Source: an uncultured bacterium (GTDB lineage: Bacteria; Babelota; Babeliae; Babelales; Babelaceae). Taken from it: a DNA stretch of 64,000 bases. Where the stretch lies: contig CAWKFG010000004.1 of assembly GCA_963848965.1 (NCBI GenBank), positions 672,001-736,000 on the forward strand, written 5' to 3'. Both the position numbers and the translations under genes were made by a program. Below, one piece after another: positions 35,662 to 49,421 of the stretch. Position 1 is the stretch's first letter; each line of letters begins with the position of its first letter. The notes beneath the pieces are model-generated. The model ran no database searches and had not been told where the DNA came from. It saw only the letters and a list, made by a program, of their open reading frames with translations.

Positions 35662-35748
35662 GGATCTATCAATAATAACCTTCTAGTGCATATTGCAATT
35701 ATGTTTGAATTCATCTATCCTAGAAGAAATAGTTATAAAGGAGTTGCC

Positions 35749-37311
35749 ATGAAACAGCTTCCTATAGGTGTTCAAACATTTGAGATAATGATTAATGACG
35801 GTTTTATCTATGTAGATAAGACTGAGCATATTCATAAGATTATAACAAAAGGCAGATACTATTTTCTAGCTCGTCCTCGTCGCTTTGGAAAATCTCTTTT
35901 AGTATCAACGCTTAAAGAGATATTTTTAGGAAACAAAGCACTTTTTAGAGACTTGTGGATTTACAAAAGTACTTATGATTGGGATGAACATCCTGTTATT
36001 CATCTAGATTTTTCACAGTTAGCTCATAAATCGCCAGATGCTCTTGAAGTAGATCTATCATGGTCTCTTGATTCATTAGGCGAAGATTATGATATTGATA
36101 TCTCTAGTGCTCCTTCAATACAAACCAAACTTAAAAAACTTGTTAAATCCCTTGCAAAAAAATATCGACCTTCACGCGTAGTTATACTTATTGATGAGTA
36201 TGACTATCCAATATTAAGTCATTTACATACATTAGAAATTGCTAAAAAACATCAAGAAATCCTAAGAAGTTTTTATGCAACAATTAAAAGCCTTGATGCC
36301 TACTTAGACTTCGTTTTTCTCACAGGTGTTAGTAAATTTTCAAGAACCTCTATTTTTTCTGGGCTTAATAATCTTAAAGATATAACAAATACCCTGCAAG
36401 GAGCTTCGTTATTGGGATATACGCAACAGGAGCTTGAATACTACTTTAAAGAGCATATAGATTTCTTAGCTAAAAAACAAAGAGTCACTATCATAAACAT
36501 TCTTGACCAGATGAGAACGTGGTATAACGGCTATAGATTTTCCAGAGAGCCTATCAATGTTTATAATCCTTATTCCGTACTTCTTTACTTAGATAACGGC
36601 GTAATAGAAAATTACTGGTTTGAAACTGGAACTCCATCATTTCTTATTAATATTCTTAGACAAAAATACGAATCATTAAGAAACATCGAACAAGGAAAAA
36701 TAAGCGTTTCAAGTTTGGGAACATTCAATATAGAAAACATGCCCCTTATAACTCTTCTTTTTCAAACCGGATATCTTACAATTAAAGACTACAATCCTAA
36801 GACACGTAAATACTCTTTAAACATACCAAATAAAGAAGTAGAGATATCTCTTGAAAAAAGCCTTCTCTCTGCGTTTACGTATAAAGATGAACCAGACGTA
36901 GAAAGTCACATCGACCGCATGAAAAAAGCTCTTGAAAGTAATGATATCAAACAATTTTGTAGTAATCTTCAAACTTTGCTTGCTCATATTCCATACAACC
37001 TTCATATTAAGCAAGAAAAATACTATCACTCTTTGTTCCAACTTATAGGCAATATGCTTGGAATAGATAGTAACTCTGAAGTTGCTACAGACAAAGGTAG
37101 GATTGATCTTACACTCATAACCAAAAAATACGTTTATTTATTTGAATTTAAATTTAATCAGTCAGCAGATAAAGCTCTTAAACAAATTGAGCACAAAAAA
37201 TATTATGAAAGATATTTAGAGCTAGAAAAAAAGATAATGCTTGTTGGTGTCTCCTTTCATCGAACTGAAAATGATCTAGCCATTGAGTGTCTGGCCAAAC
37301 CGTTGAGCTGA
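35749..37311 (+). CDS. AAA-ATPase-like protein with C-terminal PD-(D/E)XK nuclease (PDDEXK_9 type)
   Basis: Start MKQLPIGVQTF (RBS AAGGAG); YVDKT, RPRRFGKSL, ILIDEYD.P, WYNGY, YNP, YWFETGTP, GRIDL...FEFK...ALKQI..KKY. Confidence 0.93.
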   Translation: MKQLPIGVQTFEIMINDGFIYVDKTEHIHKIITKGRYYFLARPRRFGKSLLVSTLKEIFLGNKALFRDLWIYKSTYDWDEHPVIHLDFSQLAHKSPDALEVDLSWSLDSLGEDYDIDISSAPSIQTKLKKLVKSLAKKYRPSRVVILIDEYDYPILSHLHTLEIAKKHQEILRSFYATIKSLDAYLDFVFLTGVSKFSRTSIFSGLNNLKDITNTLQGASLLGYTQQELEYYFKEHIDFLAKKQRVTIINILDQMRTWYNGYRFSREPINVYNPYSVLLYLDNGVIENYWFETGTPSFLINILRQKYESLRNIEQGKISVSSLGTFNIENMPLITLLFQTGYLTIKDYNPKTRKYSLNIPNKEVEISLEKSLLSAFTYKDEPDVESHIDRMKKALESNDIKQFCSNLQTLLAHIPYNLHIKQEKYYHSLFQLIGNMLGIDSNSEVATDKGRIDLTLITKKYVYLFEFKFNQSADKALKQIEHKKYYERYLELEKKIMLVGVSFHRTENDLAIECLAKPLS

Positions 37312-40260: not shown

Positions 40261-41031
40261 ATGAAAAGATTACTTATTCCCTTGGTGCTCATTGGGGCAA
40301 GCTTTTTAGCTGTCACATGGTACCGCTCAACAAGAGACTATAAACCCTTAGAAAATATTCTTATTGTAGGAACCAGTGCTGACTTCGTGCCCTTCTCATT
40401 TAGAGATCAACAGATGAATATTGTAGGATTTGATATTGATATTGCAAAAGAAGTGGCAAAGCGCCTTAATATGCAGATCGACATTCAAGACAAGCCTTTT
40501 GGTATGCTGTTACCACAGATGGAAATGGGCCAAATCCATATGATCGCTGCAGGTATGACACCAACAGAAGAGCGAGCAAAACGCGTTCATTTTACTAAAC
40601 CGTATTTGACAGGTAATCCTCTTTTAGTAGTAACACTTGCAAAAAATCCGCCAGTAAACAACTTAGAAGATCTTAAAGGTAAAGATGTTATTGTTAATAC
40701 AGGTTATACAGCAGATACCTATATGTCCAAGATACCTGACATTAACCTTATACGTCTTGGCAAAGTAGCAGATGCTATCGCAGCTCTTGAGCACGGTAAA
40801 GGATATGCTTTTGTAACTGCAGCTTATACACTACAGCCATATCTTAAAGAGACAGGCAAAGACAAAACAGAATTTAATGTCTTTAGAATTCAAGAGACAG
40901 ATGAAAAAAATGCATTAGCTATTTCTAAAAAGCTTCCTGATGAATTTGTACAAAAGGTACAAAAAGCGCTTGATGATATGGAAGCAGATGGAACACTTAC
41001 TGCATTAAAACAGAAGTGGGAAGTTGTATGA
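40261..41031 (+). CDS. Polar amino acid ABC transporter substrate-binding protein
   Basis: VGTSADFVPF, GFDIDIA, GMTPTEERAK.V.FTKPY (SBP_bac_3 motifs). Confidence 0.95.
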   Translation: MKRLLIPLVLIGASFLAVTWYRSTRDYKPLENILIVGTSADFVPFSFRDQQMNIVGFDIDIAKEVAKRLNMQIDIQDKPFGMLLPQMEMGQIHMIAAGMTPTEERAKRVHFTKPYLTGNPLLVVTLAKNPPVNNLEDLKGKDVIVNTGYTADTYMSKIPDINLIRLGKVADAIAALEHGKGYAFVTAAYTLQPYLKETGKDKTEFNVFRIQETDEKNALAISKKLPDEFVQKVQKALDDMEADGTLTALKQKWEVV

Positions 41032-41687
41032 TCAACTTTGAACTTATTATTTCTATCTTGCCTCAGCTTGCACAAGGAGCACTCGTAACGCTTGCTATAG
41101 CGTTCTGTGCTTCTCTTATAGGCTTTTTTGGAGGCACCATTTTAGGTGTTATACAAACGAGTGGCTATCGCGGACTATCGCTTGCTGTTGCAATATATGC
41201 TACCATCTTGCGTGGTACTCCTATGCTTTTACAGATAGTGTTTCTTTCTTTAATGCTTCCTACTATAGGTATCTACTTATCTGCATTTACTACTGCGGTT
41301 GTTGCAATTGGTCTCAATAGCAGTGCCTATATTAGTCAGATTATACGGAGTGGTATCCAATCAGTATCTAAAGGGCAAATAGAAGCTGCTCGCACACTTG
41401 GAGTAAGTTCAGGGGATATTACAAGATACATTGTATTACCACAAGCGTTGCGAGTAGTTATTCCTGCGCTCGGAAATGAATTTATCACGCTTATTAAAGA
41501 TTCCAGCTTAGCATCTATTATTGGTGTTATGGAGCTTTATATGCGTGGCAACATTATTATAAGTCAAACGTATAACTCACTTTCTGTCTACATTGCTACT
41601 GGTCTCTTTTATCTTGTTATGACCGTTATACTTTCACTTATTGTTCACAGAATCGAAAAGAAGCTTAATTACCATGCTAGAAATTAA
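41028..41687 (+). CDS. Polar amino acid ABC transporter permease
   Basis: ATGA overlap with the SBP stop; RGTPMLLQ, NSSAY, GQIEAA..LG, NEFITLIKDSSL. Confidence 0.95.
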   Translation: MINFELIISILPQLAQGALVTLAIAFCASLIGFFGGTILGVIQTSGYRGLSLAVAIYATILRGTPMLLQIVFLSLMLPTIGIYLSAFTTAVVAIGLNSSAYISQIIRSGIQSVSKGQIEAARTLGVSSGDITRYIVLPQALRVVIPALGNEFITLIKDSSLASIIGVMELYMRGNIIISQTYNSLSVYIATGLFYLVMTVILSLIVHRIEKKLNYHARN

Positions 41688-42387
41688 ACATCTCACGAAG
41701 ATATATCACAGTAAAACAGTACTCAACGATATCTCTCTTTCTGTAGAGCCAGGGGAGATTGCGTTACTCCTAGGATCATCTGGCGTAGGAAAATCTACAC
41801 TTTTGCGTATCCTCAATGGGCTAGAGACCTATGATAAGGGTACTATAGTGCTTAATAATAAATCATTAGATATTAAGCACACACGTGCTGTAGGAATGGT
41901 TTTTCAGCAATTCAATCTCTTTGAACATATGACAGTTATACGCAATATTACATTTGCACTCGAAAAAGCACTTAAAAAGACCCCTAAAGAAGCACGTGCT
42001 ATCGCTCATGCACTTCTAAAAAAGTACGGTCTTGAAGATAAAGCAGATTTGCCTGTAACACAACTTTCGGGAGGGCAAAAGCAACGGCTTGCTATAGCCC
42101 GTTCACTTGCTCTACGACCACGAATTATTTGTATGGATGAACCTACTTCTGCTTTAGATCCTTTACTTACTAACTATGTTGCTCAAAGTATTCAAGAGCT
42201 TGCCCAAGAAGATTATATAGTACTCGTAGCATCTCATGATACTGCGCTTATTGAAAAACTCGATTGTACTATTTACCTTATGGATAAAGGAGAGCTTGTA
42301 CAAACAGCACGCTCAAAAGAATTCCGTAAACATCCAGAAAACTATCCAAAGATCAAGAACTTTGTAGAGGGCGCTCAGTCTACTTGA
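41674..42387 (+). CDS. Polar amino acid ABC transporter ATP-binding protein (GlnQ-like)
   Basis: GSSGVGKST, VGMVFQQFNLF, LSGGQKQR, DEPTSALDP. Confidence 0.95.
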   Translation: MLEIKHLTKIYHSKTVLNDISLSVEPGEIALLLGSSGVGKSTLLRILNGLETYDKGTIVLNNKSLDIKHTRAVGMVFQQFNLFEHMTVIRNITFALEKALKKTPKEARAIAHALLKKYGLEDKADLPVTQLSGGQKQRLAIARSLALRPRIICMDEPTSALDPLLTNYVAQSIQELAQEDYIVLVASHDTALIEKLDCTIYLMDKGELVQTARSKEFRKHPENYPKIKNFVEGAQST

Positions 42388-42433
42388 GAAAAACTCAATA
42401 GCTTTAGTAAAATAAAGCAAAAGCCTCTTTATG

Positions 42434-42589
42434 TGTGCGAATTAAAAGTTCAACTTACGATCCGCACGATTTATCTTGTGACCACGAATTTGCCTAATTC
42501 AGCTAAAATATAGTTGATCCTTTACTTTTTAACTATTTCTGGGGTACAATTAAATTGTGCGAATTAAAAGTTCAACTTACGATCCGCAC
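42434..42589. repeat. Two identical 34-bp imperfect palindromes flanking a promoter (operator-like)
   Basis: TGTGCGAATTAAAAGTTCAACTTACGATCCGCAC at 42434-42467 and 42556-42589. TACAAT -10 box at 42545-42550 lies between them; RBS AGGAGG follows. Confidence 0.9.
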
Positions 42590-42603
42590 AAATAGGAGGT
42601 GAC

Positions 42604-43791
42604 ATGTTTAAAAGAGATTTGACCAATACACTTATTAATTACGCCCGTTTTCCTGTTGTTGCTCTTCTAGGACCACGCCAATCTGGTAAAACTACTTTAG
42701 TAAAAAATACCTTTAAAAACCATCGTTTTATCACTTTTGAAGATGCAGACGTACGGTCACTTGCACTTACAGATCCTCGTGGATTTTTAAGAATACATGA
42801 AAATGAGTTTGGTATTATTATAGATGAATTTCAGTATGTTCCTCAAATTTTAAGTTATATTCAGCTTGAGGTAGATGAAAAGAAAAGACCTGGATACTTT
42901 ATTTTAACAGGATCACAAAACTTTTTAATGAACCAAGCAATAACACAGTCTCTTGCAGGAAGAGTAGGCATTTTAAATTTATTACCTCTCTCATTACATG
43001 AACTTTCTCAAAATGCTTTACTTCCTGAACTAGCAGATCAAGCTATAGTTAACGGAGGATATCCGCGAATTTATAGTGAAAATATTTCTCCTATCCAACT
43101 ATACCCCTCGTATATTCAATCCTATATTGAACGCGATGTACGACAACTTATTAATGTAGGTAACCTCAATTTGTTTCAGAGATTTATTCAGTTATGTGCA
43201 GGAAGAGTAGGACGCGAGCTTAACTTAACAGTCTTAGGAAACGATTGCGGGATAAGTTACGTAACCGCACGCAGTTGGCTTTCTATCCTTGAAGCAAGTT
43301 ATATTGTATTCTTGCTTCAGCCTCACTATCAAAATTTTAATAAGCGCATTACTAAAACACCTAAACTATATTTTTTCGATACTGGTATAGTATGCTCGCT
43401 TTTACGCATTTATAGCCCAGAAGTATTATCAACTCATCCCTTAAGAGGGAATATCTTCGAATGCTTTATAATTGCAGATCTTTATAAACAATACTGTAAT
43501 AAGGGCCTACGACCTGCCTTATATTTTTGGCAAGACCAAAATGGCAAACACGAAATAGATTGTATTATAGATACTGGCCTGTCTTTAGTCCCTGTAGAAA
43601 TAAAATCTGGCGAAACAGTAAATCCAGACTATTTTAAAGGTCTTAAGTTCTGGAAAGAGCTTACTGGAATTGATTCTTCAAAAGAATTTGTTATCTATGG
43701 GGCAGATCACACATTCCAGCAGAGAAACGTAGGAACTCTCCTAGGATGGAAAGCTGCTGCGACACTTGTGGACTACGTCCAACCGATATAA
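42604..43791 (+). CDS. AAA_14 ATPase with HTH and DUF4143 (PD-(D/E)XK-like) domain
   Basis: GPRQSGKTT, IIDEFQ, FILTGS, SLAGRV, GGYP, YIERDV, HTH LNLTVLGNDCGISYVTARSWL, K.PKLYFFDTG, EID...VEIKS. Confidence 0.93.
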   Translation: MFKRDLTNTLINYARFPVVALLGPRQSGKTTLVKNTFKNHRFITFEDADVRSLALTDPRGFLRIHENEFGIIIDEFQYVPQILSYIQLEVDEKKRPGYFILTGSQNFLMNQAITQSLAGRVGILNLLPLSLHELSQNALLPELADQAIVNGGYPRIYSENISPIQLYPSYIQSYIERDVRQLINVGNLNLFQRFIQLCAGRVGRELNLTVLGNDCGISYVTARSWLSILEASYIVFLLQPHYQNFNKRITKTPKLYFFDTGIVCSLLRIYSPEVLSTHPLRGNIFECFIIADLYKQYCNKGLRPALYFWQDQNGKHEIDCIIDTGLSLVPVEIKSGETVNPDYFKGLKFWKELTGIDSSKEFVIYGADHTFQQRNVGTLLGWKAAATLVDYVQPI

Positions 43792-43810
43792 GCTTATGGC
43801 AGCCCACTCA

Positions 43811-43859
43811 AAAAGAATTCTATAAGCATCCAGAAAACTATCCAAAAATTAAGAACTTT
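43811..43859 (+). repeat. Displaced copy of the ABC ATPase 3' end (attR-like)
   Basis: Encodes KEFYKHPENYPKIKNF versus KEFRKHPENYPKIKNF at 42315-42363. Confidence 0.9.
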
Positions 43860-44027
43860 AGCACACACAAAATTATCTTGAAGATATATACTACTGCTTT
43901 TAACAAAACATCTTTATTTTCTTGGACAAACCTTTCTTAAGAAGAAAAAGTAGCATATTATAAGGCTTTATTTACCATCAAGGGATTAATAGAGGGGTTA
44001 TTCTATGTAGATAGTTACAATCGTGAC

Positions 44028-44056
44028 TTGACATTATAAAAAGAGCTTGTTAGTCT
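44028..44056 (+). promoter_or_regulatory. Sigma70-type promoter with no annotated downstream plus-strand CDS
   Basis: TTGACA-17 nt-TAGTCT with an extended TG motif. Confidence 0.6.
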
Positions 44057-44061
44057 CATCA

Positions 44062-44163
44062 TCATTAGAGAGCTTAACAATGTCCCTAAACGAACAATAC
44101 ATCCTACGTATTGTTCACCCCCCTAACCCTTCAGCTTATTTAAGTTGAAGGGCTCTTTTATTT
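44062..44163 (+). ncRNA. Candidate ~100-nt small RNA (or 22-codon small ORF)
   Basis: Promoter upstream; perfect 9-bp hairpin GAACAATAC/GTATTGTTC; C6 tract; 11-bp terminator hairpin CCCTTCAGCTT/AAGTTGAAGGG with a T-rich tail. Confidence 0.5.
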
Positions 44164-48052: not shown

Positions 48053-48168
48053 ATCACCCACAGCATGGTGGATAATCACCCACCACATGGTGGATTTTTT
48101 ACCATTCTATAGATTTTTCACCCGCAATGTGGTAGAATATCAACCAAGATATGGTGGATTTTACACCA
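48053..48168. repeat. Array of 22-bp imperfect direct repeats over the promoter of the second DUF4143 gene
   Basis: Units at 48053 ATCACCCACAGCATGGTGGATA, 48075 ATCACCCACCACATGGTGGATT, 48117 TTCACCCGCAATGTGGTAGAAT and 48139 ATCAACCAAGATATGGTGGATT, then a partial TTACACCA. Extended -10 TGGTAGAAT lies inside unit 3. Confidence 0.8.
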
Positions 48169-48176
48169 AGGAGCTT

Positions 48177-49421
48177 ATGTTTTACCGCAATATTCAGCAA
48201 AGACTGGAAAAATCCCTTACTATTCATCCGGTAGTCTTGTTAACAGGAGCACGACAAACGGGTAAAACTACTTTAATGAAAGAAGTTGCTCAAGGAAAAA
48301 ATTATACTTATATTACCTTTGATGATCTTGGCTTTTTAACAACTGCACAAAAGGATCCACAAGGATTTATACAGAGCATACCCAAACCGGTAATTCTTGA
48401 TGAAATACAAAGGGTTCCAGAACTATTTCTTTCTATTAAACAATATGTTGATGAGCATGATATTCCTGGCCAATTTGCCTTAACGGGATCTGCCAATCCA
48501 CTCTTAATTCCTCGTTTAGGAGATTCACTTGCAGGTAGAATGGAGATACTTAAGCTATTTCCGCTTTCACAAGGAGAATTGCATAACACTTTTAACGATT
48601 TTATTAGCTTTGCATTTAGTGACGCTCTCTTTCCTAAAACTTCAGAACTTCAGAAATCAGAGTTATTGAAAAGTGTTATAGTAGGAGGCTACCCCCGTGT
48701 TCAAGGACTTGATGAGGATGGTCGAACATCGTGGTTTAATTCTTATATCGAAGCATTACTTCAACGGGATGTAAAAGATCTCTCTCAACTTACGAGCATT
48801 GGTGAATTTCCTCGTCTTCTTTATATTTTAGCAACACGCACCGGAAACCTTCTTAATACAGCTGATCTTTCACGCTCAACAGGTATACCCACTACAACAT
48901 TGCAGCGCTATCTTTCTCTTTTAGAAGCATTGTTTATTGTTCAATTACAACCATCTTGGAATTCAAATTTAGGAAATAGGTTTATCAAATCACCTAAAAC
49001 ATATCTCATAGATTCTGGATTACTTTCATTCCTTCTTGGCATTAATCTTCAGAGACTAACTGATGATGGAAAGCTTATGGGTGGAATCCTAGAGAATTTT
49101 GTAGTGAATGAGCTCTATAAGCAGGCCACGTGGAGTAAGATGAGAGTTAAACTTTACCATTTTCGTACAACCACAGGAATTGAAGTTGATACTGTACTTG
49201 AAAACGCTAGCGGGTCACTTGTCGGCATTGAAGTAAAAGGAAGTGCTACCATAAACCCAAGCGATTTTAAGGGATTACAGTATCTGCAAGAAATGACTCA
49301 ACAAAAGTTTCACAGGGGAATTGTTCTTTATCTAGGATCTGAAATCATACCATATGGTAAAGGGCTTTTTGCAATTCCTCTTTCATCTCTTTGGAGAACT
49401 GCTTCTGTCAGCACTCTGTAA
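48177..49421 (+). CDS. AAA_14 ATPase with HTH and DUF4143 domain
   Basis: Start MFYRN after AAGGAG; GARQTGKTT, ILDEIQ, FALTGS, SLAGRME, GGYP, HTH LNTADLSRSTGIPTTTLQRYL, KSPK.Y..DSG, EVD...GIEVK. Confidence 0.93.
   Translation: MFYRNIQQRLEKSLTIHPVVLLTGARQTGKTTLMKEVAQGKNYTYITFDDLGFLTTAQKDPQGFIQSIPKPVILDEIQRVPELFLSIKQYVDEHDIPGQFALTGSANPLLIPRLGDSLAGRMEILKLFPLSQGELHNTFNDFISFAFSDALFPKTSELQKSELLKSVIVGGYPRVQGLDEDGRTSWFNSYIEALLQRDVKDLSQLTSIGEFPRLLYILATRTGNLLNTADLSRSTGIPTTTLQRYLSLLEALFIVQLQPSWNSNLGNRFIKSPKTYLIDSGLLSFLLGINLQRLTDDGKLMGGILENFVVNELYKQATWSKMRVKLYHFRTTTGIEVDTVLENASGSLVGIEVKGSATINPSDFKGLQYLQEMTQQKFHRGIVLYLGSEIIPYGKGLFAIPLSSLWRTASVSTL

Follow-up and report, generated by a model that had tools for sequence, protein, structure and literature searches.

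We propose that an AAA_14-DUF4143 gene lying directly behind a glnQ-like ABC ATPase gene in an uncultured Babelaceae bacterium entered the genome as a small cassette, and that its insertion left a long duplication of the target that is now old and eroded; we hold this reading with about even confidence. The locus was studied in a window of 64,000 nucleotides (nt), positions 672,001 to 736,000 of contig CAWKFG010000004.1 (assembly GCA_963848965.1), and coordinates below are those of the window unless a contig is named. The assembly comprises five contigs (1.73 Mb, 37% guanine plus cytosine [G+C]). The genome is of the Dependentiae/Babeliales type, and the closest homologous loci come from Candidatus Babeliales, Dependentiae and candidate division TM6. 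What is new here is the proposed footprint of a long target duplication around a gene of the PDC-S01 type; the mode of insertion itself is already known for restriction-modification genes.

The footprint consists of two direct repeats, one at the 3' end of glnQ and one just behind the stop codon of the AAA_14-DUF4143 gene. A first-pass annotation had reported a 49-bp duplication here, and it exists: positions 42315-42363 and 43811-43859 agree at 44 of 49 nt (90%) with a start-to-start spacing of 1496, and the five mismatches are the codon changes that had been listed (CGT/TAT with two changes, AAA/AAG, AAG/AAA and ATC/ATT). A blastn alignment widens the pair to 42305-42363 and 43800-43859 (copy 1 and copy 2, 60 columns, 86.7% identity, one 1-nt indel), with a longest identical run of 20 nt, and in the 1.73-Mb genome the repeat matches these two places only. 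When the 480 nt upstream of the AAA_14-DUF4143 gene were aligned locally with the 280 nt downstream, the score was 78, against a mean of 20.5 and a maximum of 31 in shuffled controls (n = 300, standard deviation 2.5). Chance similarity is hardly credible given that score, and neither is an assembly artefact, since an assembler would not create or collapse copies that have diverged by 13%; the contig is moreover 873 kb long. Past either end of the repeat, no homology rose above the shuffles, including any trace of the lost glnQ tail after copy 2. A further 7-nt match (42277-42283 and 43792-43798) could possibly extend copy 2 leftward and would imply a 21-nt deletion within it; copy 2 begins 8 nt past the cassette stop codon, or 1 nt past it if this match is included.

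The two copies do not have the same standing. In the window, VEGAQST and a stop codon come after copy 1, and the GlnQ proteins of ten relatives end in ...NFVEGHFSE, ...HFVEGIED, ...KFVEGS, ...QFVEGI, ...KFVSGH and similar sequences, with ...FVEG... in 5/10. Because VEGAQST and its stop match these ends, copy 1 with its tail is the native-type end of glnQ. Copy 2, which has a 1-nt insertion near its start, stops exactly after ...KIKNF and is followed by nothing resembling the tail; it is therefore a truncated pseudo-copy and not a displaced original end. The mismatches had been taken to mean that both copies evolved as coding sequence, a claim that these differences do not establish: three third-position differences out of five have P = 0.21 under neutrality, and the indel in copy 2 is frameshifting. 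Nor do synonymous differences require copy 2 to have been coding, since selection on copy 1 alone would yield them. A 64-aa open reading frame (ORF) without a Pfam match (43746-43940, + strand) extends from the end of the DUF4143 gene across copy 2, in the frame of glnQ; it is probably a side product of the pseudo-copy.

These gene ends bear directly on the reading first given to the locus, namely an integrase-less integrative element, or the remnant of a larger one, that sits at the glnQ 3' end, carries a replacement end and is moved in trans, in the att form of the hypothesis by a site-specific recombinase. In integrase-less elements with att flanks (CIMEs), and in integrative islands located at the 3' ends of genes, direct repeats lie at the 3' end, the target is intact and there is no recombinase inside; the window agrees in that its direct repeats overlap the 3' end of an intact gene and its cassette has no recombinase. 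The replacement-end logic fails, however, where the native-type end lies at the near border and the far-border copy lacks the last 8 codons, that is, the very gene end that should have been displaced. The idea of a single att site is likewise contradicted elsewhere in the family, where related cassettes occupy unrelated sites and are flanked by unrelated, locus-specific repeats of variable length (40-160 nt). The cassette was correctly described as integrase-less: among the 23 ORFs scanned between 27 and 60 kb, none had a Pfam domain of an integrase or transposase. In the genome as a whole there are two Phage_integrase-family (PF00589) genes, both Xer-sized and both on contig C1, not on the cassette's contig, and there is no near-identical second copy of the cassette. 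With no integrase domain nearby, no displaced gene end and no target common to related cassettes, the att reading fails, and we regard it as very improbable. A DNA transposon or insertion sequence was also considered and rejected: no inverted pair brackets the cassette, there are no near-identical copies (the closest paralogue is 57% identical in protein), and pairs of related cassettes show no short duplication at their borders. One arm of the upstream dyads described below may resemble a Xer/dif arm, a likeness that was set aside because the 33-nt spacing misfits the 28-nt dif site.

Comparison with relatives suggests that the AAA_14-DUF4143 gene is a lineage-specific arrival in a variable place. 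Ten relatives were used (loci L021-L030), from other genera of the family or other families of the order; the nearest are other genera, with GlnQ 49-74% identical. In genomes of the family and order, synteny is kept from glnHPQ to a conserved small RNA (sRNA)-like element, and the distance from the glnQ stop codon to this element is 58, 85, 93, 200, 586, 1570, 1680, 2108, 3246 and 3557 nt in the ten relatives. The slot between them is filled with unrelated genes, including a 470-aa gene of secreted type in 2/10. None of the ten (0/10) has a DUF4143 gene between glnQ and the sRNA-like element, as the proposed single-gene insertion would predict, and all ten have a single copy of their own glnQ end. 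The variable gap, the lack of a DUF4143 gene in the relatives and their single glnQ ends together indicate, by sequence comparison, that the slot is an insertion hotspot and that the cassette is a lineage-specific insertion. A search for a remnant of the 470-aa slot gene found none.

The insert is a single ORF with its own upstream region. The earlier gene calls, a GlnQ-like ABC ATPase and an AAA-DUF4143 protein, hold by their Pfam and NCBIfam matches: the ABC ATPase has GlnQ as its top NCBIfam match (E 1.8e-57, below the equivalog cut-off), and the cassette protein scores 92.6 bits to AAA_14 and 164.6 bits to DUF4143 against Pfam cut-offs of 27 and 28.1. By the usual definitions of the Walker A and B and nuclease D...ExK motifs, its motifs are intact, with Walker A at residues 23-30 (GPRQSGKT), Walker B at 71-75 (IIIDE), EID (ExD) at 317-319 and VEIK at 331-334 (ExK at 332-334). 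Like PDC-S01 of PADLOC, a single-gene phage-defence candidate, it joins an AAA_14 ATPase to a DUF4143 PD-(D/E)XK module, and the PDC-S01 model PDLC04790 matches residues 4-372 at E 7e-94. DUF4143 belongs to the PD-(D/E)XK superfamily, according to the accessible part of PMC3424549, and in the accessible part of PMC12988326 PDC-S01 ranks fourth among defence candidates by frequency, with most such candidates still awaiting experimental validation. The protein is best described as a candidate anti-virus ATPase-nuclease. That portion of PMC12988326 makes no mention of a cassette structure, upstream dyads or flanking duplications for PDC-S01.

Upstream of the gene lies an exact 34-nt direct repeat (42434-42467 and 42556-42589), each copy of which holds a 33-nt dyad, and a promoter-like sequence stands between the two. 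The view that operator repeats, a promoter and one gene form a unit gains support from its recurrence, as dyads of the same type (GTGC-N25/26-GCAC) occur within 260 nt upstream of homologues at 60/130 loci compared with 3/2600 shuffled upstream regions, and several of these loci have two dyad copies 70-150 nt apart. The dyad arms covary: across 34 aligned 33-mers, 82.9% of cells are paired compared to 73.2% when shuffled (0/500 as high) and 32-43% when slid, and 11 of the 15 pairs have changed on both sides. This pattern fits either a hairpin or an operator co-evolving with a dimeric binding protein. The position of the dyad over the transcription start favors the latter type of role, and we suggest that the dyads serve as operators for autoregulation. 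The distal dyad is probably the left part of the cassette. The strict dyad motif is absent from the six closest paralogues in the same genome. Base composition is uninformative, with a G+C content of 35.5% in the cassette, 38.3% in glnHPQ and 36.7% in the window.

Pairwise DNA comparison of 160 fetched loci, with flanks compared by tblastx, suggests that this arrangement travels. Six pairs of cassettes are 82-95% identical with homology limited to 1.23-1.33 kb (L038/L117, 94.7%; L064/L065, 91.5%; L058/L127, 87.8%; L085/L160, 95.4%; L109/L181, 92.0%; L187/L190, 82.4%), and tblastx found no similarity between the flanks of paired cassettes. Flank of at least 400 nt is available on each side of both members in L064/L065, L109/L181 and L187/L190; for L038/L117 and L058/L127 just the left side is informative, and L085/L160 is ambiguous because its tblastx block outruns the DNA block on the right. 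The borders are sharp, falling 24-46 nt before the dyad on the left and from the stop codon to approximately 35 nt past it on the right; in L038/L117 homology stops exactly at the stop codon. Pairs that share flanks (L036/L116, L046/L061, L114/L118) are ordinary orthologous loci, and L127/L131 have the right flank in common but not the left. The mobility postulated for the cassette is borne out to the extent that the same cassette type is found in unrelated contexts with sharp borders, and these alignments indicate that dyad, promoter and gene travel horizontally as a unit that lacks a recombinase. The window protein reaches at most 57% identity with any of its 14 full-length paralogues and up to 65% with proteins of other genomes. 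In a FastTree tree of 134 proteins (unrooted, read for neighbor distances only) the tips closest to it are external, and the six close paralogues form no cluster. By analogy with the borders of the other pairs, the left end of the window cassette may be placed at approximately 42389-42411, right behind the glnQ stop codon. Separately, two metagenome contigs (L049/L052) have cassettes 99.4% identical over 1243 nt with different upstream arrangements, one contig ending 66 nt past the gene, a pattern to be expected either if the unit was recently active in several copies or if the assembly broke at a repeat.

If such insertions duplicate their targets, homologues elsewhere should also be flanked by local repeats. 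The first-pass annotation had proposed surveying DUF4143 genes for flanking duplications, and the survey found an enrichment. We scored ORFs of at least 250 aa for a same-strand repeat of at least 40 nt with one copy no more than 450 nt upstream and the other no more than 250 nt downstream. In metagenome loci 9/55 DUF4143 ORFs and 6/127 other ORFs scored, and in genome loci 5/72 and 1/154, after 8/80 genome loci had been dropped as duplicates of metagenome records. Once near-identical records were clustered, 12/123 DUF4143 genes were flanked by repeats compared to 6/276 other genes on the same contigs (odds ratio 4.9, Fisher p 0.0026). The repeats are locus-specific, 40-160 nt long, and derive from local sequence: the 3' end of a convergent gene (L032, L041, L075), the terminator of the upstream gene (L090), the region ahead of a xerD-like gene (L105) or the cassette's own upstream region (L080, L118), the last of which indicates tandem copies. 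Relative to the stop codon, the start of the right copy falls at -2 to +29 nt in 8 of the 12 listed cases. In the window's own genome the test picks out 10/843 ORFs, two of them DUF4143 genes and the rest tandem paralogue arrays. One flanked paralogue, C4:447406-448734, was considered as a second like case and rejected because its 77-nt repeat is part of a dispersed family with at least 10 copies in an 18-kb island. A module present in unrelated contexts, with local duplications about five times commoner than around its neighbors, links the family to insertion with long target duplication.

This mode of insertion is known from restriction-modification units. According to the accessible text of Furuta, Abe & Kobayashi (2010; PMC2853133), such units lack mobility genes and have flanking duplications of more than 30 bp, of variable length and unique local sequence, which often lie over the 3' end of a neighboring gene and are commoner around these units than around average genes. 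The authors propose a part for double-strand breakage and suggest that amplification can occur by way of the repeats. As far as that text goes, the window is alike in having a nuclease-bearing, defense-type unit without a mobility gene, direct repeats of unique local sequence longer than 30 bp that overlap the neighbor's 3' end, a repeat length that varies by site in the family, and flanking repeats that are commoner in the family than around other genes, and differs in that its cargo is a single ATPase-nuclease gene and not a restriction-modification pair. On the individual hallmarks, the repeat exceeds 30 bp on both sides whether taken as 49 nt at 90% or as 60 columns at 86.7%, the single-ORF insert has no mobility gene and its repeat has two copies in the genome, and 10/10 relatives, from other genera or families, have a single copy of their own glnQ end and no DUF4143 gene in the slot, a comparison with empty sites at family level only. 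Unlike a clean long target duplication, the copies in the window are 87% alike and the last 24 nt of the target are missing from the right copy. Earlier work on this mode, by Nobusato et al. in 2000, is cited by Furuta, Abe & Kobayashi.

We favor the following model. A self-contained cassette of approximately 1.4 kb, in which two 33-nt dyads flank the cassette's promoter and the one gene encodes an AAA+ ATPase joined to a module for DNA binding and PD-(D/E)XK nuclease activity, would have entered the variable slot directly behind the glnQ stop codon. Insertion would have copied approximately 85-120 nt of the target, glnQ end included, to both sides, so that the duplication would date from the insertion itself. 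Selection would then have kept the left copy as the working end of glnQ, while the right copy decayed, gathering approximately 13% substitutions and a 1-nt insertion and losing at least 24 nt from its end. DNA breakage by a nuclease, possibly the cassette's own, may underlie the event. The truncation of copy 2 would be later than the insertion. An extra deletion has to be assumed because the glnQ tail lies before the insert and is absent after copy 2; we take a deletion in the dead copy to be the simplest repair of the model, and it is plausible since that copy also has a 1-nt insertion and possibly a 21-nt deletion.

Several observations weigh against this model. The 24 nt of native glnQ end and the stop codon sit between copy 1 and the insert and have no counterpart after copy 2, so that the copies do not both abut the insert: the right copy is 1-8 nt from the stop codon, the left one is separated by the 24-nt tail, and abutment is restored only if copy 2 was later truncated. 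The left border of the window cassette is set by analogy only, and its closest homologues have no DNA similarity to it outside the ORF, so they give no fix on the border. The well-bounded cassette pairs show neither a short nor a long duplication at their borders. Comparison with empty sites reaches other genera only and none of the same species. In the survey, 111/123 homologues have no such flanking repeat, and three of the hits among other ORFs are direct neighbors of DUF4143 genes and thus not independent. An earlier, wider test with 1200 nt on each side had scored 12/51 loci; its control failed, with 7/25 real positions against 7/25 and 3/25 shifted windows, and it was dropped for the tighter gene-based test because shifted windows scored as often. 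Finally, tandem cassette remnants occur in the family (L080, L043, L118), so local duplication followed by decay gives similar pictures.

This last point is the basis of an alternative hypothesis, in which the cassette was already behind glnQ when a 1.5-kb segment, from the glnQ end to past the cassette stop codon, was duplicated in tandem, after which the second cassette and the second glnQ tail were deleted and 60-68 nt were left. The deletion would account directly for a copy 2 without a glnQ tail, and second copies are seen in the family, as a degenerate second start in L080, two tandem genes in L043 and a dyad on both sides in L118. In the window's genome, two paralogues 6 kb apart are also very similar (tree distance 0.19). 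Direct repeats close together are, moreover, fairly frequent in these genomes, being present in 14/200 random windows. Against this, two events are needed and the arrival of the gene is left unexplained, no remnant of a second cassette follows copy 2, and the position of the right copy less than 30 nt from the stop codon in 8 of the 12 listed cases is unlike random breakpoints. We consider tandem duplication unlikely.

A second alternative is that a donor fragment from another member of the Babeliales, carrying a glnQ end and the cassette, recombined through the conserved glnQ end, either by a single crossover of a circle or by homology-facilitated illegitimate recombination, so that one copy of the repeat is donor-derived. 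Campbell-type integration and homology-facilitated illegitimate recombination could both set foreign DNA beside a conserved gene end and duplicate that end. The copies differ mostly at synonymous sites, as two orthologous gene ends would, and the slot is a hotspot that holds different genes in relatives. A single crossover, however, predicts the recipient's own gene tail after copy 2, where it is absent, and the longest identical run of 20 nt is short for homologous recombination, which needs more than that. The 60 nt of repeat cannot assign either copy to a donor, and the sequences duplicated at other loci are terminators or promoter regions and not conserved genes. Homology-assisted integration seems to us improbable.

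A bolder form of the insertion model would make PDC-S01 cassettes autonomous one-gene selfish elements, whose own ATPase-nuclease recognizes the dyads, breaks DNA and drives insertion with a long and variable target duplication. We rate this as a long shot, and if it were true, no simpler self-mobile nuclease genes would be known, and they would offer a tractable model of a mode of insertion unexplained since 2000. PDC-S01 genes are among the commonest prokaryotic defense candidates in the accessible text of PMC12988326, and no published account of how they spread was found in the literature searched. On the insertion model, the window adds an old and eroded example from reduced Dependentiae genomes rich in such genes, and it shows how the footprint decays.

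Features of the glnQ locus, in window coordinates.
Feature	Position	Strand	Detail
glnH-like binding protein	40261-41031	+	Pfam SBP_bac_3, E 7e-36
glnP-like permease	41016-41687	+	Pfam BPD_transp_1, E 6e-24
glnQ-like ABC ATPase, intact, C-terminus ...KIKNFVEGAQST then stop	41674-42387	+	Pfam ABC_tran, E 2e-36
Copy 1: functional coding, glnQ codons ~211-230, followed by 24 nt of native gene end	42305-42363	+	
Distal 33-nt dyad, GTGC...GCAC, 47 nt past glnQ stop	42435-42467	.	Identical to proximal dyad
Promoter-like TTTACT-18 nt-TACAAT, between the dyads	42521-42550	+	Consensus scan 9/12, pattern match only
Proximal 33-nt dyad	42557-42589	.	Begins 7 nt behind the -10 hexamer and ends 14 nt ahead of the ATG
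AGGAGG between proximal dyad and ATG	42594-42599		
AAA_14-DUF4143 gene, 395 aa, PDC-S01 type	42604-43791	+	Pfam DUF4143, E 2e-48; AAA_14, E 2.5e-26
Copy 2: non-functional glnQ-end pseudo-copy, 1-nt insertion, last 8 codons gone	43800-43859	+	
Spacer from copy 2 to conserved downstream element	43860-44025	.	No similarity to glnQ tail, cassette or 470-aa slot gene
Conserved sRNA-like element, right side of slot	44026-44160	+	~100 nt conserved, 82-95% identical in 10 relatives

The genes on the left side of the slot (40261-42387), which code for the binding protein, permease and ATPase of an ABC system of the polar amino-acid type, form an operon that is syntenic in the relatives. The sRNA-like element on the right side is 82-95% identical across the family and order, where the neighboring proteins are 50-74% identical. 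Its parts are promoter-like hexamers, a GTCCCT-AAA stretch that is conserved, a hairpin of 9 bp with compensatory changes, a single-stranded C-rich stretch and a terminator, whose hairpin lies at 44127-44152. The consensus fold of the element has 20 pairs, of which 5 show compensatory changes. No Rfam family matched the element at E up to 1, and an Rfam search at the same threshold together with a tRNA scan over the region found no relevant known RNA gene.

The window cassette is one of three ATPase-nuclease fusion genes that lie within 14 kb among housekeeping genes, one of them AAA-ATPase_like plus PDDEXK_9 and two AAA_14 plus DUF4143; its two neighbors of this kind are at 35686-37311 and 48087-49421. 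Across the 1.73-Mb genome, tblastn found 15 full-length and 4 fragmentary DUF4143-type matches, and relatives in the family also carry many. Outside the window, contig C4:435000-453700 has at least 10 same-strand copies of a repeat of approximately 75 nt, spaced 1.2-3.7 kb apart, and among the genes between them, named by eye, are two DUF4143 paralogues, a pair resembling AbiEi/AbiEii and a reverse transcriptase of the group II intron type. The layout has the look of a cassette array; an attC-like reading of the repeat was rejected, as its ends are, by eye, direct and not inverted. On contig C1:584100-591514, the two DUF4143 paralogues mentioned above, 6 kb apart, stand among local repeats of 400-490 nt, and this pair, unlike the other paralogues, is a recent duplication within the genome.

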